Below the pieces are notes generated by a model. It did not search any database and had not been told where the DNA came from. It was given only the letters and a program-made list of their open reading frames with translations. DNA of 64,000 nt from an uncultured Chloroflexia bacterium (GTDB taxonomy: Bacteria > Chloroflexota > Anaerolineae > JAAYZQ01): assembly GCA_963700285.1 (NCBI GenBank), contig CAVOXA010000001.1, positions 640,001 to 704,000 on the forward strand, in the 5' to 3' direction. The translations under genes and the position numbers were made by a program. Position 1 is the stretch's first letter. Each line of letters starts with the position of its first letter. Shown piece by piece: positions 9,554 to 19,798 of the stretch.

Positions 9554-10540
9554 ATGCACTATCGTGAACTGGGACGTACCGGCTGGCAGGTTTCCGAGAT
9601 CAGCTTTGGCGCTTGGGCGATCGGCGGCAGTTGGGGCGCAACCGACGACGCCGAGTCGCTGGCTGCCCTGCACCAGGCGCTGGACCTGGGCGTCAATTTT
9701 ATCGATACGGCTGATGGTTATGGCAATGGCCGCAGCGAAAAGCTGATCGGCCAGGTGTTGCGCGAACGCAAGAGCGAACGCATATACGTGGCTACCAAGG
9801 CCGGACGGCGGTTGTCGCCCCACGTGGCCGAGGGCTACAACCGCGAGAACCTGACCGCCTTTGTCGAGCGCAGCCTGAGCAATCTGGGCGTGGAGACCCT
9901 GGATCTGCTTCAATTGCACTGCCCGCCCACCCAGGTCTTTTACGAGCCCGAGGTTTTTGGCGTGCTCGATGATCTTATGGCCGCAGGCAAGCTCCGGCAC
10001 TATGGCGTCAGCGTCGAAAAGGTAGAGGAGGCGCTCAAGGCCATCGAGTACCCCAGCGTCAAAACGGTGCAGATAATCTTTAACATGTTCCGCCACCGTC
10101 CGGCTGATCGCTTCTTCGCTCAGGCCAAGGAGCAGGGGATCGGCATTCTGGCCCGTGTGCCCCTGGCCAGCGGTCTGCTGACCGGCAAAATGCGGGCCGA
10201 CACGGCCTTCGAAGAGGACGACCACCGCTACTTCAACCGCCACGGCCAGTCCTTCGACGTCGGCGAGACCTTCGCTGGCGTGCCTTACGAGGTGGGTCTG
10301 GAGGCCGTTGAGGAGCTGCGGCCCCTGGTACCGGAGGGTGCCACTATGGCCCAGATGGCCTTGCGCTGGATCCTGATGTTCGACGCCGTTAGCTGCGCGA
10401 TCCCCGGCGCCAAGCGCCCGCAGCAGGCCGTTGAAAACATCGCTGCCAGCGACCTGCCGCCCCTGAGCAACGAGACCATGGCCGCCGTGGACGACATCTA
10501 CGATCGTCTGATCCGACCCTACGTCCACCAGCGCTGGTAG
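9554..10540 (+). CDS. Aldo/keto reductase
   Basis: GVNFIDTADGYGNGRSE, LDLLQLH, GKLRHYGVS, AIPGAKRPQQ. Confidence 0.95.
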   Translation: MHYRELGRTGWQVSEISFGAWAIGGSWGATDDAESLAALHQALDLGVNFIDTADGYGNGRSEKLIGQVLRERKSERIYVATKAGRRLSPHVAEGYNRENLTAFVERSLSNLGVETLDLLQLHCPPTQVFYEPEVFGVLDDLMAAGKLRHYGVSVEKVEEALKAIEYPSVKTVQIIFNMFRHRPADRFFAQAKEQGIGILARVPLASGLLTGKMRADTAFEEDDHRYFNRHGQSFDVGETFAGVPYEVGLEAVEELRPLVPEGATMAQMALRWILMFDAVSCAIPGAKRPQQAVENIAASDLPPLSNETMAAVDDIYDRLIRPYVHQRW

Positions 10541-10561
10541 GCTGCTCTGTCCCCTGAAGCA

Positions 10562-10684
10562 CCGGGGCACTCCAAACTCAGAGAGGAGCGAGACATCCCC
10601 TGATGCTGAGCGGGGCCACTGGCATGAAGGCGTGCTCGCTCCTCGATCTGAGAGTCATCCCACATCCACCGGGGAGCGAGACAC
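10562..10684 (-). mobile_element. Hairpin-rich element end truncating the neighbouring gene, possibly an IS110-type non-coding end remnant
   Basis: Terminal TGTCTCGCTCC is repeated inside a long hairpin (GAGGAGCGAG 10583-10592 / CTCGCTCCTC 10635-10644). It abuts the break point of the repeat protein. Confidence 0.35.
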
Positions 10685-11583
10685 CCCCCCGGCGTAGACC
10701 ACGCCCCCGCTCTCCGCCAGGGCATAGACGTTGCTGCTGGCATTGGGGTCCCAGGCCGTGACCAGGCCCGTGCCGGCGTCCAGGGCGGCGATATAGTTGC
10801 GCGCCTGGCCGCCGATGGTGGTGAAACTCCCCCCGGCGTAGACCACGCCCCCGCTCTCCGCCAGGGCCTGGATGATGCTGTTGGCATTGGGGTCCCAGGC
10901 CGTGGCCAGCCCCGTGCCGCCGTCCAGGGCGGCGATGTAGTTGCGCGCCTGGCCGCCGATGGTGGTGAAAGCCCCCCCCGCGTAGACCGTGCCCCCGCTC
11001 ACCGCCAGGGCAAGGACGGGGCCGCTGGCGCTGGGGTCCCAGGCCGTGGCCAGCCCCGTGCCGGCGTCCAGGGCGGCGACGTAGTTGCGCCCCTGCCCGC
11101 CGATGGTGGTGAGCCCGCTCCCGCGTAGACCGTGCCCCCGCTCACTGCCAGGGCAAAAACTCCGTCATCGGCATTGGGGTCCCAGGCCGGGTCCACCGTA
11201 TAGTCGGGCAGGATGTGGGCGATGTTGTTGCGGGCCAGCCCGCCCACGTGGCTGAAGCTGCCGCCGATGTACCAGCCCCCGCTGCCATCGGGCACAACGA
11301 CATCGACCTCCGAGCTGGCGAATCCGGCGACGACTTTGGGGTACGTGGCTAGCGGGGAACCGCTGCCGCTGTCCAGGGGCACACCCGGGCCGGTGTTGGG
11401 CCCGACATAGTCAAAGTCTCCGCCAATATAGAGGGTGTTGCCCGAGACCAGCGTGGCAGAGACCAAGCCATCGGTGCCCCACAGGTCGGGCCGGATCGGC
11501 TCGTCGGCTTGGGCCGGCAGGGCCGACGCCAGAAACGCCAGCAGGACCAAGAAGCTGATGAACGTGCTCGCTCGCTGTGCCAT
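10655..11583 (-). pseudogene. Secreted beta-propeller-like repeat protein (AWDPNA repeats), frameshifted and 3'-truncated
   Basis: Signal peptide MAQRASTFISFLVLLAFLASALPAQA. 48-aa repeats VYAGGxFTTIGGQARNYIAALDxGTGLATAWDPNA are split over several frames, and the gene ends abruptly at ~10684. Confidence 0.7.
10685..11190. repeat. Tandem ~144-bp coding repeats (~3.5 units)
   Basis: GGCGTAGACCACGCCCCCGCTCTCCGCCAGGGC at 10691 and 10835; further degenerate units near 10980 and 11123. Confidence 0.85.
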
Positions 11584-11722
11584 TGTACCGCTCCTTTGTG
11601 ATGCGGCTCCGTTGAGGCAGCCTGGAACCGAGTTCAAGCAGGGATGCGCGGGTCGCTCCATGCAGGCGAGGGTCTGTCCCTCCTCCTCCCGCCGGCATGA
11701 GCCGGTTGGCCCAGCGCCAAAG

Positions 11723-11751
11723 AGTATATCATAGATCCTGCCGCGCGTCAA
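11723..11751 (-). promoter_or_regulatory. Sigma70-like promoter for repeat protein gene
   Basis: TTGACG-17-TATACT on minus strand. Confidence 0.55.
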
Positions 11752-11772
11752 TTGCGGGGGAAAAGCTTCAGG

Positions 11773-11870
11773 AAAGCGCGATGAAGCATGCCCTGAGCGA
11801 AGCCGAAGGGCGCGCACTACGAACAAGCCCCGCCCAGCACGCAACCGTTCGTAGCCGGCGATTTATCTCC
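11773..11870. repeat. GTAG-type REP/REPIN-like inverted pair, copy 1
   Basis: CTACGAAC...GTTCGTAG inverted pair flanked by GC palindromes; contains a CCCTGAGCGAAGCCGAAGGG insert absent from copy 2. Confidence 0.5.
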
Positions 11871-12313
11871 ATGTCCACAACTCCCTCGCTCCCACCATTC
11901 CTCGGCTCCTCCCACAGGGCTGATGTAGGACAAACACTGACAGGCATGCGAGCCCTTCGCCTACAACGGGATCAGACTACCACCGATAGACTTGAGCATA
12001 CCAAAGGTGTACAATCTTGAGTACTGGAAAAGCTCAAGGTCTACTAATGACACCGATCCTGTCACTGCGAGGCCCGCCGTTTGGGCCGAGGCACCGCCAC
12101 GAGACCTCGCAGTGACAGTCTCCACTTGTGTAGTTGGGGATTGCTTCACTCCGGCAAAAAGCGCCTCCGCTCGCAATGACGAGGTCAGGTGTCATTCCAT
12201 TTAGAGTGGCGCCCCGCGCCATGGAACACTCGCGAGGACAGGGCCGGACAAAGTTCGCAACCTAAAAGTTTATGAATACTACTTGAGGAGGGTACTATGT
12301 TCAAAAAGACTAG
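11850..12313 (+). repeat. Duplicated promoter/leader and first codons of the CSLREA gene, copy 1 (interrupted by MITE)
   Basis: 11850-12047 matches 14706-14903. 12198-12313 matches 16491-16606 with one mismatch seen, including the RBS and ATG TTC AAA AAG ACT AG. Confidence 0.9.
12041..12200. mobile_element. 160-bp MITE-like element with IS110-type ends (CTACTAA...CAT)
   Basis: Subterminal IRs AATGACACC/GGTGTCATT and an internal GTCACTGCGAGG/CCTCGCAGTGAC hairpin. It occupies exactly the site filled by IS110 in copy 2. Confidence 0.7.
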
Positions 12314-12524
12314 TACAACCTCTTCAAAGAGATTTTGATATAATCGGATAGAGCCGCTTGAGCTTATTGCGAGCGTCAATGGACGTGAACTGCCAATTCA
12401 CAGTTGCTTGCTGCCCATTGCGTATTGCTTCCCAGGCGGCAATCTCGCGGCACAACGTATCTTCGTCGGGGATACGGTCCGCCAGGCATTGTTCGCACAA
12501 GACGCCAATCTCTATCTCGACCAT
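12313..12524 (-). mobile_element. IS630-family transposase 3' remnant
   Basis: MVEIEIGVLCEQCLADRIPD...AWEAIRN...VNWQFTSIDARNKLKRLYP is an IS630 C-terminus. It sits at TA within CTAG, cutting the duplicated gene at codon 5-6. Confidence 0.8.
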
Positions 12525-12594
12525 TGTAGTGACCCCCAAAAACTGGACAGGTGCGATAGTTAATGTACAATCAGTCCAGGAAAGGGGAAACCGA

Positions 12595-12900
12595 ATGGCA
12601 AAGCGACGAAACTTCAAGCCGGAGTTCAAAGCCCGCCTCGTGCTCGAAGAGCTGACCGGCGCCAAGACCATGGCCGAGATCTGCCGGGAGCACCAACTGA
12701 GCGCGCCCGTCTTCTCTCGCTGGAAAGCCGAGTTCCTGAAACGGGCACCCGAGATCTTTGCGACGGAACCGAGCCGCGGCGACGAGCAGCAGCGTATCGC
12801 CGAGCTGGAACGGATGGTCGGGCGATTGACGATGGAGCTGGAAGCGGCAAAAAAAGCCTCGAGCATCTTGACCTCTCACTTGAGCGGAAACGGCAGGTGA
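12595..12900 (+). CDS. IS3 transposase OrfA (HTH)
   Basis: MAKRRNFKPEFKARLVLE...EICREHQLSAPVFSRWK...LERMVGRLTMELEAAKKA. Confidence 0.88.
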   Translation: MAKRRNFKPEFKARLVLEELTGAKTMAEICREHQLSAPVFSRWKAEFLKRAPEIFATEPSRGDEQQRIAELERMVGRLTMELEAAKKASSILTSHLSGNGR

Positions 12901-13741
12901 TCCACATGCTGGCCGACGACTATTCTGTGAGCCTGCTGTGCGAGCTGCTCGGGTGTCCCAGGAGCAGCTACTACTACCAACCCAAGCTGCAAGACGAGAC
13001 CGAGGTCAAGAGCGCTATCGAGGATGTGGCGATCGAATGGCCGACCTACGGCTACCGCCGAGTCACCAAACAACTGCATCGCAACGGACGGGACGTCAAC
13101 CACAAACGGGTGCAGCGTCTGATGCGTGAGATGGGACTGCAGGTCAAAACCAAGCGAAAAGCCCGGAAAACGACCAATAGCGAGCACGATTTCCCACGCT
13201 ATCCGAACCTGGTCCAGGACATGGAGATCGTGCTACCCCGATCAGGTCTGGGTGTCCGACATCACCTACATCCGCTTGCGCGACGAGTTCGTGTACCTGG
13301 CCGTGATCATGGACGTGTTCACGCGCAGCATTCGTGGCTGGCACCTGGGACGCAGCCTCGACCAGACGTTGACCCTGATCGCCCTGGACCGCGCGCTGGC
13401 CGGCCACGCACCAGAGATTCACCACTCGGACCAGGGTATCCAGTACGCGGCCACAGCCTACATCCAGATGCTTCGAGCCGCTCGGCGCCGAGATCAGCAT
13501 GGCCGAGATCGGCGAGGCCTGGCAGAACGGCTACGCCGAGCGGCTCATCCGCACGATCAAAGAGGAGGAGGTTGACCTGTCGGAGTACGAGTGCTATACT
13601 GATGCTGTCTCCCAGCTGGGCCGATTCCTGAACGACGTCTACATGCACAAGCGGATCCACTCCTCGCTGGGCTATCTCACGCCAGCCGAGTTCGAGGAAC
13701 AGTGGCGCCGTGGGCGTGAGCAGCCTCTCGATGTTAACTAA
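12897..13741 (+). pseudogene. IS3 transposase OrfB (DDE integrase core), frameshifted near 13236 and 13480
   Basis: YGYRRV, WVSDITYI, HHSDQGIQY and NGYAERLIRTIKEE are distributed over three ORFs. Confidence 0.85.
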
Positions 13742-13781
13742 AAACGGCTCCAAAAGTGTCCAGTTTCATGGGGTCACCGCA

Positions 13782-14576
13782 GTGCCCACCAGATGCACAC
13801 GGTGCGGCGTTGGAGGAAAGACCACTACGAGCAATGGCGCTACCACTGGGTGGTGCAGGTGCCAATCCGCGCGGGAGCCAAGGCGGTGCGAGTCAACTGG
13901 TGTGAAGTGACCGTTGTTCGCGAAGACAGCGGTGAGCAGGTCTATTACAATACCTGGATCACCAGTCATGATCTGAACACCAAGACCATCGAGGAAGTGG
14001 CGGATGCCGGGCGTACCCGCTGGAAGGTGGAGAACGAGGGATTCAATGTGCTCAAGAACCAAGGCTATCAGTTCGAGCACAACTTTGGCCACGGTCACCA
14101 GCACCTGTCGACGGTGTTACTGACGATGTTGTTTCTGGCTTTTCTCTTCCACACCGTGCTACATCTGACCAGTCGACTGTACGAGGCGCTTCGACAGGCC
14201 ATCGGCGCGCGGCGCGAGTTCTTCAACGACCTGCGTGCGCTGACCTGCTACCTCTACTTCCCCGGTTGGGACGAGATGCTGACCTTCATGGCCATCAAAC
14301 AAGAAGTGGCACTGAGCTGACCTAGTTCTCCTCGCCATCGTTTTGCCTTGGCGGTGCTGCTCCTCAAGCAGGCCACGACTTGAGGGCCGATATCCCCTGC
14401 TGGCTGCACTCTTACTCGCCTAGGCATCTTCGCTGCTCGGCTCCCTCGCCTCCTGCGGCGACCCACCTCGACTCCGCTTCGCCAGCTTACGGCAACGCCA
14501 TCTGCCATCCAAGTCGCCGGGACTACGCCTCGGTTCCCGTGTCAAACTCTCTACTCACCTAAAATAAGAATTGCTG
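13782..14576 (+). mobile_element. ISNCY-type transposase 3' remnant (CDS fragment to 14320) with right end
   Basis: GRTRWKVENEGFNVLKNQGYQFEHNFGHG motif; probable terminus GAATTGCTG at 14568-14576. Confidence 0.75.
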
Positions 14577-14594
14577 TCACAAAGCCACTATGGC

Positions 14595-14623
14595 TTGACA
14601 AGGTGCAACGGTTATGGTATAAT
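14595..14623 (+). promoter_or_regulatory. Perfect consensus sigma70 promoter
   Basis: TTGACA-17-TATAAT with TGn extended -10. Confidence 0.75.
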
Positions 14624-14652
14624 GTAAAGTGTAAAAGGTGGACAGCGCCTCA

Positions 14653-14726
14653 GAAAGCGCGTGAATCGCGCGCTACGAACAGGCCCCACCCAGAGCGCAA
14701 CTGTCCGTAGCCGGCGATTTATCTCC
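14653..14726. repeat. GTAG-type REP/REPIN-like inverted pair, copy 2
   Basis: AAAGCGCGTGAATCGCGCGCTACGAAC ... GTCCGTAGCCGGCGATTTATC. Confidence 0.5.
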
Positions 14727-14899
14727 ATGTCCACAACTCCCTCGCTCCCACCATTCCTCGGCTCCTCCCACAGGGCTGATGTAGGACAAACACTGACAGG
14801 CATGCGAGCCCTTCGCCTACAACGGGATCAGACTACCACCGATAGACTTGAGCATACCAAAGGTGTACAATCTTGAGTACTGGAAAAGCTCAAGGTCTA

Positions 14900-16282
14900 C
14901 TAAGAAACCGTGGTTGAAGGTGCATGGTTGGGTATCAATTCGAATCCCATGGCAGCCGCCTTGCGCTTGAGGCTACGTACAACTCGATCGCGATACTGCT
15001 GTTCATAGTAGGAGACGCCAGGATCAGTGTAGGCCGTGCGGTTCTTTAACATGAAGTAGACAATCCGCGCAAGTTTGTGAGCAGTAGCTGTGAGGGCTTT
15101 GGCCGGACCCTGCCTCGCCTTCATGCGGCGGTAGAATGCGCCAACTGCACACTGGCTTCGGCTCAGGCTCTGAGCAGCCAGCCTGAATGCCAGATTGGCT
15201 CTGTTCTTGGTCTTCTTGGTGCGCCTGCGCAGTACCTTTCCGCCTGACGTATCGTTGTGGGGAGATAGACCTAGCCAAGAAGTGAAGTGCTTTACAGTGG
15301 GCCAAGCACTCACATCTGTGCCAATCTCGGTGATGATCGACTGGGCCGTCAGGGCATCAATGCCATCAATGGCAGTCAGGTCTACACCCACGACCTGATA
15401 GAGCGAAGCTGCTAGGTCAAAGTGGGCTTGGTTCTTGCGCGGCTTGCCCCTCTTTGGCTTAGGTGGCGGAGAAACCAGATCCTCTGGATCGGAGGGAGCC
15501 ATAGCAGCGTACATTGCCTCCATCTCTGTGTCACACTCCTGAAGCTGTTGCTGGTAGAAGTCGTATTGAGCCACCGCCTGCTTTAGGACAAACACGTGTT
15601 CCTGCTTGTAGTTGCCGTCCAGAGCCTTGGCAATCTGTTCTTCACTCTTGGCACAGCCTGGCTGTCGAAGCTCAGCCAGCTGGTGAGGGTCTCGCTCTCC
15701 AGCCACAATGGCGCGGATGATGCTCAGACCTGTCACACCGGTGATATCAGTGACAACCTGGCTTAGCTTCACATTCATCAGCTGCATGGCTTTCTGCATG
15801 TGCTGGATATGGGCAGAACGATACCGAATCAAGTTGTCCCGATGTCTGGCCAGCGCTCGTAGAGCGCATATCTCTTCAGGGGGCCGGAACGAGGCACGCA
15901 ACAGACCGTATGTGTGCAACTGCTGAATCCACTGAGAATCGTGGATGTCTGACTTCCGCCCAGGCACGTTCTTGACATGGCGGGCATTGACCAGGTAGAC
16001 TTCAAAGCCTCGGGCCTCGAGGATCTCGAAAACTGGGATCCAATAGATGCCTGTGGATTCCATCGCTACTGTGTCAATCTTGCAGGCCGTCAACCAGTCG
16101 GCTAACTCGTGCAAGTCAACAGTGAAGGTGGGAAAGACCCGCACCCGGTGTTCGTCCCGGCCACCTGGGACACAAGCGTAGATGTCCTCTGGATGAATAT
16201 CTAGTCCAGCAGCATTGAGATTAATCTGCTCCAGGACATCAAAGTCCGGAGCCTTCACAGCCGATTTCCTGCGTTTGGCCAT
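14900..16282 (-). CDS. IS110-family DEDD transposase / bridge recombinase
   Basis: AAGLDIH, VAMESTGIYW, GRKSDIHDSQW, FTSWLGLSPHNDTSGGK, KALTATAHKLARIVY. The start is probably ATG 16282 behind AGGAG. Confidence 0.95.
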   Translation of the reverse strand: MAKRRKSAVKAPDFDVLEQINLNAAGLDIHPEDIYACVPGGRDEHRVRVFPTFTVDLHELADWLTACKIDTVAMESTGIYWIPVFEILEARGFEVYLVNARHVKNVPGRKSDIHDSQWIQQLHTYGLLRASFRPPEEICALRALARHRDNLIRYRSAHIQHMQKAMQLMNVKLSQVVTDITGVTGLSIIRAIVAGERDPHQLAELRQPGCAKSEEQIAKALDGNYKQEHVFVLKQAVAQYDFYQQQLQECDTEMEAMYAAMAPSDPEDLVSPPPKPKRGKPRKNQAHFDLAASLYQVVGVDLTAIDGIDALTAQSIITEIGTDVSAWPTVKHFTSWLGLSPHNDTSGGKVLRRRTKKTKNRANLAFRLAAQSLSRSQCAVGAFYRRMKARQGPAKALTATAHKLARIVYFMLKNRTAYTDPGVSYYEQQYRDRVVRSLKRKAAAMGFELIPNHAPSTTVS

Positions 16283-16310
16283 TTTGGGGTGACTCCTACT
16301 CATAGATTAG

Positions 16311-16456
16311 GTGTTCAGACCCGACTATCCATCGCCAACGTAGGCTACTAAACGGGGTCCAAAGGCCACCAATGATCAAGCCACCGATAGTCGGAACCAC
16401 ACTCGCGAACGGGCACTTGCGCACCATTGCCTCGACGGTCTTTGCTGTCTGAACAC
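16311..16456 (-). ncRNA. Putative bridge/seek RNA of the IS110 element
   Basis: Closed by a 10-bp IR GTGTTCAGAC/GTCTGAACAC with inner stem CCGACTATC/GATAGTCGG. The loop contains TTAGTAG, identical to the element end. TATAAT at 16460-16465. Confidence 0.6.
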
Positions 16457-16589
16457 TGTATTATACACTGAAGCGCAAGTAGGTTTCTTACATTTAGAGT
16501 GGCGCCCCGCGCCATGGAACACTCGCGAGGACAGGGCCGGACAAAGTTCGAAACCTAAAAGTTTATGAATACTACTTGAGGAGGGTACT

Positions 16590-18386
16590 ATGTTCAAAAA
16601 GACTAGGAAATTCCACGCTCATTTGGTATTGATTCTTGTCCTGCTGGGCAGCGCGCTGATCGTCACACCTGCGCACGCGGCAACAATCACGGTCAACGTT
16701 TTCACCGATGAGGATACCGACAACACAAACTGCTCTCTGCGTGAAGCTATAATTGCCGCGAATACAAACGCGGTATACAGGGGGTGTTCAGCCGGAGCTG
16801 GCTCAGATGATATCACCCTTCCTGCAGGGACGTTCACGCTCACATTGGGCAAGCAACTGCCTGTCGTAACCTCCTCCATGACGATCAACGGCAACAGCAG
16901 AACGGACACCTTCGTCCAGGCTTCAACCTGTGATCCTGTTACCCTGCCAGGTGGTTGTACTCCTGCCACCTACCGCGTCTTGGAAGTGGGCGGTGGGGGA
17001 TCCCTAACGATCAACAATCTGACCATACGACATGGGAACTGTCCGAACAGTCTTCTCTGCACCATCTCATCGGGAGATCAAGACAGCAACAAGGGCAAGG
17101 GCGGCGGCATCTTTAACAGTGGAATTCTGATGCTGAGTAACAGCACCATGTCAAGAAACAAAGCCACGAACGACGGTGGCGGCATCTACCTGTATCAAGG
17201 CTCCCTATCCATCACGGACACCGATATCGTGGACAACGCTGCTGGCACAGGCGGCGGCGGCGCCGCCAGCAGCGGCTCTGGCACGATAAACGTCATGAAC
17301 AGCGTTTTCGGGAGAAACACCGCGGGCAACGGTGGCGGCATCTCCACCAGTGGAGGCACGCTGAACGTGATGGGCAGTACTTTCGCGAATAACTCCGCTT
17401 CTGGTGGTGACGGCGGCGGCATCAACAGCGGTGGAACATTGACCGTGGATAAGAGTTCCATCCATGACAACACCGCTGGCAACAGGGGCGGCGGCATCGG
17501 GTCAACCGGTGGAGGTCCCAACAGCGTGACGAACAGCACCATCTCTTCCAACACCGCTTCCAGTAAAGGCGGCGGCATCTTTAACTATGACGACCTGAAC
17601 GTGACGAACAGCACGCTCACGGGCAACTCTGCTGCTGCCGGTGGCGGCTTTTACAGCGACCCCTATCAGCACGAGAACGATACCAAATACGCCGTAGTAA
17701 CCCTGAAGAACACCATCCTGGCCAATAGCACCAGTGGTGGCGATTGCTACAATTACGTGAATGGTCCAGAAAAACCAATTACCGGCAACAATAACCTCAT
17801 TGAAACAGAAGGGATCTCTCCTTGTGGAACGACTGCTCCCATAACCAACACTGATCCGAATCTGGGTACACTGACCGGTTCACCAGCTTTCTACCCCCTC
17901 AACGCTGGTTCGCCCGCCATTGATGCAGGCGATGATGCCACTTGTGCAGCGCAGCCCGTGAGTAATACTTCGCAGAATGGAGTCACCCGTCCACAAGGCT
18001 TGCATTGTGATATTGGCGCGTATGAAAAAACTCTGTCGGGGACCATCACCGTGAAAAAGCTGACGGTTCCTGCCGGGTCGGACCAAGCATTCGCCTTCAC
18101 GGGGGCCATCACGGCTCAGCTCAAGCATGGACAGAGCGCGACGGAGACGGTGGAGCCGGGCAGCTACAGCGTATCGGAGACGGTGCCAACGGGCTGGCAA
18201 TTGACGTCGATCCAGTGCGACGACAGCGATAGTGCGGGGGATGCGAGCACCGGCGAGGTCATCTTCCGTGTCCTGGCAGGAGAGGACGTGACCTGCACGT
18301 TTACGAACACGCAGGGCGGGGTCAAGCCGGACCATATGATCTATCTGCCCATGATGCACCAAGGCCCCAAGCCCAAACCAGAGTAG
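16590..18386 (+). CDS. Secreted CSLREA-domain protein with beta-helix repeats, choice-of-anchor Q-like region, Ig/prealbumin-like domain and YLP tail
   Basis: Signal peptide, CSLREAIIAAN, GGGI repeats, GSPAIDAG...RPQGLHCDIGAYE, TCTFTN, C-terminal HMIYLPMM. Confidence 0.88.
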   Translation: MFKKTRKFHAHLVLILVLLGSALIVTPAHAATITVNVFTDEDTDNTNCSLREAIIAANTNAVYRGCSAGAGSDDITLPAGTFTLTLGKQLPVVTSSMTINGNSRTDTFVQASTCDPVTLPGGCTPATYRVLEVGGGGSLTINNLTIRHGNCPNSLLCTISSGDQDSNKGKGGGIFNSGILMLSNSTMSRNKATNDGGGIYLYQGSLSITDTDIVDNAAGTGGGGAASSGSGTINVMNSVFGRNTAGNGGGISTSGGTLNVMGSTFANNSASGGDGGGINSGGTLTVDKSSIHDNTAGNRGGGIGSTGGGPNSVTNSTISSNTASSKGGGIFNYDDLNVTNSTLTGNSAAAGGGFYSDPYQHENDTKYAVVTLKNTILANSTSGGDCYNYVNGPEKPITGNNNLIETEGISPCGTTAPITNTDPNLGTLTGSPAFYPLNAGSPAIDAGDDATCAAQPVSNTSQNGVTRPQGLHCDIGAYEKTLSGTITVKKLTVPAGSDQAFAFTGAITAQLKHGQSATETVEPGSYSVSETVPTGWQLTSIQCDDSDSAGDASTGEVIFRVLAGEDVTCTFTNTQGGVKPDHMIYLPMMHQGPKPKPE

Positions 18387-18393
18387 CAGCTCA

Positions 18394-18443
18394 GGACTGG
18401 CAGACCCGGGACTCCATCCCGACCGAGGTCTGCCAGTCCTTTT
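18394..18443 (+). terminator. Rho-independent terminator
   Basis: GGACTGGCAGACC...GGTCTGCCAGTCC followed by TTTT. Confidence 0.7.
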
Positions 18444-18664
18444 CGCGTGATACCTGTACCCATTTCGCTCGTGCGGGACGACAGACTCCACCGAGCTCAG
18501 TCGAGCCCTCCAGCGTCGGTGGCAGCAAATCGCGTGCTGTGGCCTGCCAAGAGCTTTCGACGGGGGGTGTTGCCGGGGGGTGCCCTCCCGGACCAGTTGT
18601 GGAGCAAGGTATCCCCCGATGCTAAACGGGCTCCGCTCGCATGCTGGCTCCTGATGGCCAGAAG

Positions 18665-19798
18665 TCATTCGATCCAACAACTACCGGACTCACCCAGTCC
18701 GCCCTTTACCCGGACGCGGCCGGGCAGAAACTGGTTCACCACCCAGACGCTGGTCAGCAGGTGCTGGGTCACCGCCTCAGTTGTGAATTGCGACGGTCCG
18801 CTGGCCAGTGCAAGGGGCAGCACCAGTTGATCCGCCAGGTAACCGTCCACAGCGGCATCGCCCTGCAGGTAGGCCAACAGGTCCCGCGCTGCCTCCTCAG
18901 CCACCTGCTCCGCTGGCTTGCCCAGCTCCCCCAAGGATGTGAACCCGGCCGCAGCGTTCTCCGATTCGGCCCACAGGAATACCACCGTGCCCTGCCCCTT
19001 GGAGGGCGAGTCCACGACCTCAATGCGGGCGTTCACGCCATTCGCGCGCAGCGCCTGGAGTACCGCTTGCTCCTGCCGTACCCGGATGTGTTTGGGCAGA
19101 TTGCTGCTGGCCGACAGGCCCCGCACTCGCAACAAGTCTCCCCGCTGGCGCAAGTCCAGGCCGGACAGGCGAGTAGCCGCCGCGGCGCTGCCCTCCTTTG
19201 CCGCGTGTTGCGTGTTGCCTATTGTGTGGTGCGCGACGCCATCAGCCTGTAGCATGGAACTCGCCGCGCCCTCCACCGTCCCCTGGATGGCGCCGCCGCC
19301 CTGTGGGTACCAGCCCCACTTCTGGATGTTCACCTTGGCCCGGATCCCTACGCGCGCCAGAACCGGCAGGTACACGCGCTTCAGATAGTCGAAAGGTGGA
19401 CTCCAGGCCACGTGGGTACCGCCCCGGAGCGTCAGATTTGAAACACCCTCGGCCAAGGCCAGGGGCAGCAGTACCGTCTGCAGGATGAGGCTCACTGAGC
19501 CGGCGCTGCCCCCTTTGGCCGCCTGGGCCACGTCAAAGGTGTAGGTGCCCGCCTGCGGCGTTGAGCCTGGCACAAAGGTCACCGTCTGCGCGTTCAGCCT
19601 GGCTCCCTCCAGGCGGGCCCCGCACACCTTGGCCGCCGCCCGTACGCTTGTTAGATGTTGGGGCGCCAACCCCGGCTTACGCCGCCCGGCCCGGATGTGC
19701 TCAATGCGCACTGGCTGGCCGGTGATCGCTGCCATGGCCAGGCTGGTACGCAGCACCTGGCCGCCGCCTTCCCCGTACGAACCGTCAATGGTGAGCAT
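18665..19798 (-). CDS. rtcA: RNA 3'-terminal phosphate cyclase
   Basis: IDGSYGEGGGQVLRT, IRAGRRKPGLAPQH, GGTHVAWSPPFDY, GWYPQGGG, LADQL, TQHLLT. Confidence 0.95.
   Translation of the reverse strand: MLTIDGSYGEGGGQVLRTSLAMAAITGQPVRIEHIRAGRRKPGLAPQHLTSVRAAAKVCGARLEGARLNAQTVTFVPGSTPQAGTYTFDVAQAAKGGSAGSVSLILQTVLLPLALAEGVSNLTLRGGTHVAWSPPFDYLKRVYLPVLARVGIRAKVNIQKWGWYPQGGGAIQGTVEGAASSMLQADGVAHHTIGNTQHAAKEGSAAAATRLSGLDLRQRGDLLRVRGLSASSNLPKHIRVRQEQAVLQALRANGVNARIEVVDSPSKGQGTVVFLWAESENAAAGFTSLGELGKPAEQVAEEAARDLLAYLQGDAAVDGYLADQLVLPLALASGPSQFTTEAVTQHLLTSVWVVNQFLPGRVRVKGGLGESGSCWIE

Follow-up and report, generated by a model that had tools for sequence, protein, structure and literature searches.

A 190-bp mini-element with the ends of a neighbouring IS110 element and an interior of REP hairpins in an Anaerolineae genome

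A short element without a transposase occupies positions 12041 to 12230 of the window, the whole 64,000-nt stretch of Anaerolineae DNA analysed here. This mini-element measures 190 bp, including the CT cores at 12041-12042 and 12229-12230, and is probably a non-autonomous donor, which the neighbouring IS110 recombinase and its bridge RNA would cut out in trans as a small circle and integrate at CT cores. Movement in trans is the likely reading of four kinds of sequence evidence: the ends in common, the guide matches, near-identical copies scattered through the genome, and repeat arms found both empty and filled. The proposal of the first-pass annotation that a non-autonomous element carries IS110 donor ends is backed by the genome-wide copies, by the empty and filled arms, and by guide covariation across IS110 relatives.

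Ends, fold and guide RNA of the mini-element and its IS110 partner

The IS110 element is complete from core to core (14897-16523, minus strand), with subterminal repeats at 14901-14909 and 16482-16490. Its recombinase of 467 amino acids, confirmed at 14900-16303 of the minus strand, contains the domains PF01548 and PF02371 and scores 281 bits against NF033542 (cut-off, 140). In sequence alignment, it shows a DEDD RuvC-like domain and a Tnp domain with a catalytic serine, residues D35, E82, D119, D122, and S353 aligning with the catalytic residues of IS621. A bridge RNA closed by a 10-bp stem is predicted at 16311-16456 of the minus strand, with a TATAAT hexamer at 16460-16465 of the same strand. 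Among 10 sequences its structure is conserved, with 39 consensus pairs, 12 of which show compensatory change; single-sequence folding was not significant (z, −1.54), and an Rfam scan of 11500-17000 gave no matches at an E value of ≤1.

The mini-element shares both of its ends with the IS. Thus, the core and right donor CTACTAA at 12041-12047 (plus strand), identified by guide covariation, is the same as the right end of the IS at 14897-14903 (7 of 7 bases), and the left end at 12198-12228 (minus strand) is identical to 16491-16521 in all 31 bases. This left end contains a 6-bp hairpin (12207-12221), and most left ends of IS110 relatives likewise fold into a short hairpin. It is followed by the core and right target half (12229-12236, plus strand), which matches the target-loop guide in 7 of 8 bases and is found again at 16522-16529. 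For its part, the left arm of the mini-element subterminal repeat (12045-12054, plus strand) pairs with 12188-12196. The subterminal repeats of the two elements, TAAGAAACC in the mini-element and TAATGACACC in the IS, had been described as unrelated; they are in fact related, one substitution and one inserted base apart.

These results correct the extent assigned in the first-pass annotation, which had described an element of 160 bp ending at CAT. The letters that it quoted, at 12041-12200 and 14897-16493, are confirmed, and the right boundary is wrong: the 28 nt beyond CAT (12201-12228), which had been read as shared target flank, recur at most other copies and form the IS left end in homologues, and the element is therefore 190 bp long rather than 160. 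The claim of an identical insertion point holds for the duplicated flanks and the CT but not for these 28 nt, which are IS left end and not target. Of the two terminal motifs on which the annotation had proposed to test its reading, CAT is not terminal, whereas CTACTAA is core plus right donor. Similarly, the notion that only the donor core is mimicked, with a minimal donor of 7 plus 3 nt, does not stand. Since the full 31-nt hairpin left end and the subterminal repeat are kept, the minimal donor would be about 42 nt at one end and about 14 nt at the other, which would provide a natural minimal donor, with exchangeable cargo, for a clade of bridge recombinases. The fold of the mini-element is indeed stable (z, −4.44; matched by none of 200 shuffles), although it consists of a 9-bp closing stem enclosing several hairpins and not of a single long hairpin.

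The structure is that of an IS110-dependent MITE, having the two ends of its partner, a core dinucleotide at each junction, and no transposase. A classical DDE-type MITE was also considered and rejected, as the repeats are subterminal and asymmetric and only the 2-bp core is repeated.

Guides were compared in 17 elements, comprising the window element and 16 of 26 loci with relatives; of the other ten loci, four were further copies of multi-copy elements and six had no readable end or motif, and additional relative loci, being duplicates or unreadable, added nothing to the set. In all 17 elements, the target-loop 3′ guide matched DNA located 31 to 38 nt outside the left subterminal repeat. The right-target guide was matched in 101 of 102 nt (permutation mean, 55.9) and the right-donor guide, in the donor-loop 3′ side, matched the right end in 102 of 102 (permutation mean, 74.0), values reached by none of 20,000 permutations, counts that overstate significance because the elements are related to one another and the best match within 60 nt was taken as the target register. 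In the window element these guides lie on the minus strand, the right-target guide at 16402-16409, with two handshake bases at 16400-16401, assigned by covariation, and the right-donor guide at 16345-16351, complementary to CTACTAA. The CTACTAA that had been noticed within the non-coding RNA at 16345-16351 is confirmed there and corresponds to this guide read on the opposite strand. Handshake pairing of the target loop was found in 16 of 17 elements for the first base (6.1 by permutation) and in 11 of 17 for the second, and that of the donor loop was weak (10 of 17 and 8 of 17).

The left side behaved differently. A loose candidate for the left-target guide (16430-16436, minus strand) matched 59 of 119 nt across the 17 mutually related elements, with a permutation mean of 35.2 and none of 20,000 permutations reaching the observed value; the window's own left target matches it in 1 of 7 positions in the clade register. 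No covariation of a left-donor guide was detected in the 17 elements, either with the seven end bases or with any left-end 7-mer (86 versus 87.8). The guide-to-target and guide-to-end matches across the 17 relatives therefore fix the ends of the element, and in the multi-copy homologues L012 to L014 and L022 to L024 the shared sequence reaches identical boundaries. Relatives L012-L014, L015-L017, and L022-L024 use other guides, one group being directed to an A-run and the others to TGTAAG or CAAAG sites; by reading of the letters, the A-run target in L015 and L016 falls inside apparent IS3-type frameshift windows.

Copies, empty sites and the duplicated flanks of the window

A BLAST search of the genome (G000; its contigs are C1, C4, and so on) with the 160 bp found 14 matches with 150 or more aligned bases, together with many partial ones. 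The 14 include the window copy and a copy on contig C8, which was dropped because this contig, sharing 96% identity with C10 across 10 kb, is probably redundant. Left flanks vary among the copies, whereas to the right of CAT the 28-nt block is found repeatedly, and then CT and a REP half. This comparison of copy flanks, which the annotation had proposed, upheld its left boundary, the near-identical copies having at least six different left junctions and every one starting at the CT core, and moved the right end 30 nt past the reported position. In an ungapped scan allowing up to five mismatches, the 28-nt block was found at 17 places, followed by CTCGC in 11, by CTCAG in 4, and by other sequences in 2.

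Several copies lie in a host repeat that is itself a second small element of about 180 to 210 bp, which has repeats at its termini and target duplications of 10 bp, so some of them are probably its passengers. This second element is found at C1:887469, C1:565546, C4:114305, and about ten more places, and both of its REP hairpin arms are IS110 targets. Arm A was empty in 11 of 13 copies; in the other two the same CT is occupied, once by the IS and once by the mini-element. Of 20 copies of arm B, 17 were empty; the remaining three carried mini-element right ends, two of them without a complete left end. Thus, multiple copies occupy the target of the partner, and empty alleles exist in the form of paralogous repeat arms. 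In-silico removal of the insert recreated a junction present eight times for the C10 copy (24 nt), four times for the C6 copy (24 nt), and once for the C22 copy (30 nt). For four of the seven correctly delimited copies, including the window copy, the exact 24-nt empty junction is missing from the genome; two family-B rows with wrong left coordinates are excluded from this test.

Other interiors are found between ends of the same type, two of them with an IS-type subterminal repeat; such small elements lie at C10:856655, C10:1578483, C10:1359479, C22:104232, and C6:43355. At C6:200100-200930 (L078), three copies lie among target units of 15 bp in tandem, of which one is filled and some are empty. 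At C1:849854-849960, a right end is followed about 45 bp on by the left end of a related IS110 element, with a CTGAG-type target and no transposase.

In the window, the left flank (11811-12040, plus strand) has a second copy at 14667-14896, and the true right flank (12231-12313, plus strand) a second copy from 16524. The duplication extends over 237 nt at 97% identity on one side and 119 nt at 98% on the other, with no differences over 11850-12047, one over 12198-12313, and all seven left-flank differences within the first 39 bases. This near identity points to a recent duplication. The IS and the mini-element thus alternate between flanks that differ by 1 base in approximately 310, and no empty version of the site was found in the genome. 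The right flank comprises the upstream region and first codons of a CSLREA-domain gene, cut at 12313. The left flank is paralogous to DNA upstream of response-regulator-like genes, and its paralogues run on, as read from the letters, into a response-regulator-like reading frame. Since the left flank belongs elsewhere to such genes, the window site looks like a rearrangement junction and not a simple filled target.

The region from 10540 to 18665 (about 8 kb) is absent between adjacent orthologues in three other genomes (G001, G006, and G022). It also holds an IS3-like element (12522-13784) and other transposase remnants, a gene with 144-bp tandem repeats, and a CSLREA/choice-of-anchor Q gene. 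Sequence from the beginning of the left flank (11811-11870) forms part of tandem arrays on contig C22 (208700-211100, 279600-280450, and 292500-293550), which have repeat periods of about 108 and 80 bp.

Contigs from two RNA libraries (runs X1 and X3) join the left flank to the IS at ≥99% identity, and the IS-filled site is therefore present in other sediment samples; none of the contigs has the mini-element at this flank. Circle junctions were not found in five public runs (X1 to X5), for which contigs only, at a depth of 2 to 6, were available and a negative is not evidence of absence. In JGI metagenomes, the circle-junction pattern gave two exact matches, both in unrelated sequence, and the mini-element pattern had no matches in viral contigs. 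Head-to-tail junctions of mini-elements were chromosomal only, and an older pair at C1:1302970 forms a head-to-tail dimer sharing a single CT.

Related elements were matched in 10 of 41 genomes, this one counted; among 23 genomes of the family, 5 had the right-end pattern. In G001, of the same genus, conservation was higher at the ends (13 of 14 and 29 of 30 bases) than in the interior (111 of 146), and donor-type junctions are present in G002. Mini-elements occur in G001, G002, and G022 (90, 81, and 77% complete, respectively), where no transposase of the clade was detected at an E value of ≤1e-40. Seven of 14 regions of G000 were searched for orthologous empty sites in G001; one had no orthologue, one was rearranged, and five were compared letter by letter. 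None of these five was a clean empty orthologue: four lacked the whole repeat block, and one showed CT at the breakpoint with about 22 further bases missing.

Insertion in trans and alternative explanations

The interior of the mini-element (12061-12180) consists of TGTC-type REP hairpins with three CTCGC half-sites, starting at 12071 on the minus strand and at 12106 and 12170 on the plus strand. Genome-wide, the REP arm motifs occur 86, 40, and 32 times; for the first, about 3 occurrences would be expected. The mini-element is likely an IS110 passenger, since it has the same two ends and is filled with palindromes into which IS110 inserts. BLAST found no match between its interior and the IS, and no similarity to the bridge RNA in particular; an ssr9-like antisense role was set aside for this reason.

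According to the mechanism that we favour, the RNA-loaded recombinase would join the two mini-element ends at CT to give a circle of a predicted 188 bp, which would then insert at REP arms fitting the right-target guide. The donor-loop guide would read CTACTAA, and the hairpin left end and the subterminal repeats would probably be read by the protein and by handshake pairing. The target loop would select REP arms of the CTCGC(A/G) type, with strict matching of the right side and loose matching of the left. The recent duplication in the window would have provided two identical sites, one with the IS and one with the mini-element; the simplest route to this alternation may be excision or half-match insertion and then refilling. 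Both excision with refilling and half-match insertion with subsequent loss of one unit agree with what has been reported for IS621 (bioRxiv 2026.08.31.748434; PMC13626964). Some copies were probably carried further by the second small element or by inter-repeat recombination.

An alternative, which we regard as unlikely, is that the ends are fossils and that a single old IS110-derived insert, or a few of them, were later copied only passively, via the second small element, tandem slippage, or recombination between REP hairpins. Such spread would agree with the terminal repeats and 10-bp duplications of the second element (about 210 bp), with at least five copies in arm B that have one end missing, three of them starting at internal position 79, with the C6 copies within a tandem array, and with relatives that contain the mini-element without the IS. 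However, it accounts poorly for near-identical copies whose left junctions, at least six in number, all fall at the CT core. Nor does it explain the window copy, which does not lie in the second element, matches a C6 copy without a difference over 156 nt, and occupies, between near-identical flanks, the place that the IS has in the other flank copy; the shared homology of 7 and 31 nt would be short for homologous replacement.

Less probable still is a REP composite moved by a RAYT/Y1 nuclease, its IS-like ends being scars where half-match recombination with REP arms was aborted. Recombination of this type has been documented for IS621 (bioRxiv 2026.08.31.748434), the genome has four Y1_Tnp matches, and CTACTAATGAC equals the REP arm CTCGCAATGAC in length and in its last six bases (11 versus 86 copies). 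Yet such scars are not expected to pair a right end with a 31-nt left end, in the orientation of the IS and around a fixed interior, and the paired ends recur in several interior families and in several genomes.

The literal model of the first-pass annotation (a 160-bp element ending at CAT, mimicking the core only, at a fixed site with the right flank TTAGAG) agrees with a copy that stops exactly at CAT (C7:149697) and another that stops one base later (C4:70049), but it is refuted by the homologue boundaries and guide matches and can be given almost no weight, given that the TTAGAG block follows most copies irrespective of the left flank, that the guide-matched target lies 31 to 38 nt outside the repeat in 17 of 17 IS relatives, and that no such empty site exists anywhere in the genome.

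REP cargo and related systems

If mini-elements are moved in trans by the IS110 recombinase, they would give a testable explanation of how CGTC/TGTC REPs spread. A broader proposal, which is tentative and rather doubtful, is that IS110-ended mini-elements are the vehicle of the TGTC/CGTC REPs, for which no transposase is known; lacking a left-donor guide, such donors would be read through the right guide and a DNA hairpin end. Under it, the RNA-guided recombinase would seed its own landing sites, since each insertion would use one target and deliver three, and the several interior families and two guide types would suggest that this took place more than once in the lineage.

The closest known system is MITEPpu9 with ISPpu9 in Pseudomonas putida KT2440, in which a transposase-less element with the boxes of the IS is described as forming circles, and the idea of an IS110 passenger element is thus already published (PMC12288879). 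According to the same report, ISPpu9 is an IS110-family element that sits in REP arrays, recombines at the dinucleotide AG, as read on the strand of the transposase, and has a left box that is long, at 43 bp, and contains an inverted repeat, both boxes being borne by MITEPpu9. In contrast, the cargo of MITEPpu9 is given as the ssr9 small-RNA gene, whereas here it consists of REP hairpins with target half-sites, and five of its eight copies are reported as joined to the IS (PMC12288879). Here, several interior families are found, and the host belongs to the Anaerolineae. What is new is that the cargo is the target repeat itself and that no left-donor guide is detected.

Compared with IS621, for which handshake pairing has been described, the recombinase shares the DEDD and serine residues, the CT core, a two-loop RNA, and right guides and handshake in the same order (PMC11208158; PDB 8wt6). 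The two sequences are distant (E value, 4.8e-8), and the core here reads CT on the strand opposite the gene. Also unlike IS621, the right-target guide here is long and strict and the left one loose, no left-donor guide is detected, and subterminal repeats are present. A donor mode without a detectable left guide bears on off-target half-match events in bridge editing, and the 17 natural pairs of guide and target are now mapped.

The interior resembles the CGTC- and TGTC-tagged REPs, described as palindromes ending in TGTC or CGTC and occurring in dimers and clusters (Di Nocera 2013, PMC3733652); it is set beside those families by terminal motif and abundance, not by a consensus match. In the part of that account available, no Chloroflexi are listed for the CGTC repeats, which are said to lack a dedicated transposase (PMC3733652). 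QMITE2 of Coxiella, a repeat of 150 to 190 bp, similarly holds a REP targeted by an IS110/IS1111 element, but it has direct repeats of 7 to 11 nt and is described in the accessible text as a target only, without IS ends (PMC5896051). The main text of a 2026 survey of IS110 sizes does not contain the words MITE or non-autonomous (bioRxiv 2026.08.14.744561), and a literature search, beyond whose reach lay subscription papers and supplements, found no IS110-ended element with REP cargo.

Two further copies of the IS110 element are present in this genome, at C1:1226457-1227573 and C5:75264-76386 (99% and 78% identical, respectively). Both are truncated at one internal CTCG site, corresponding to window position ∼16019, after which a right-target half follows, suggesting recombination at an internal target-like site in these copies.
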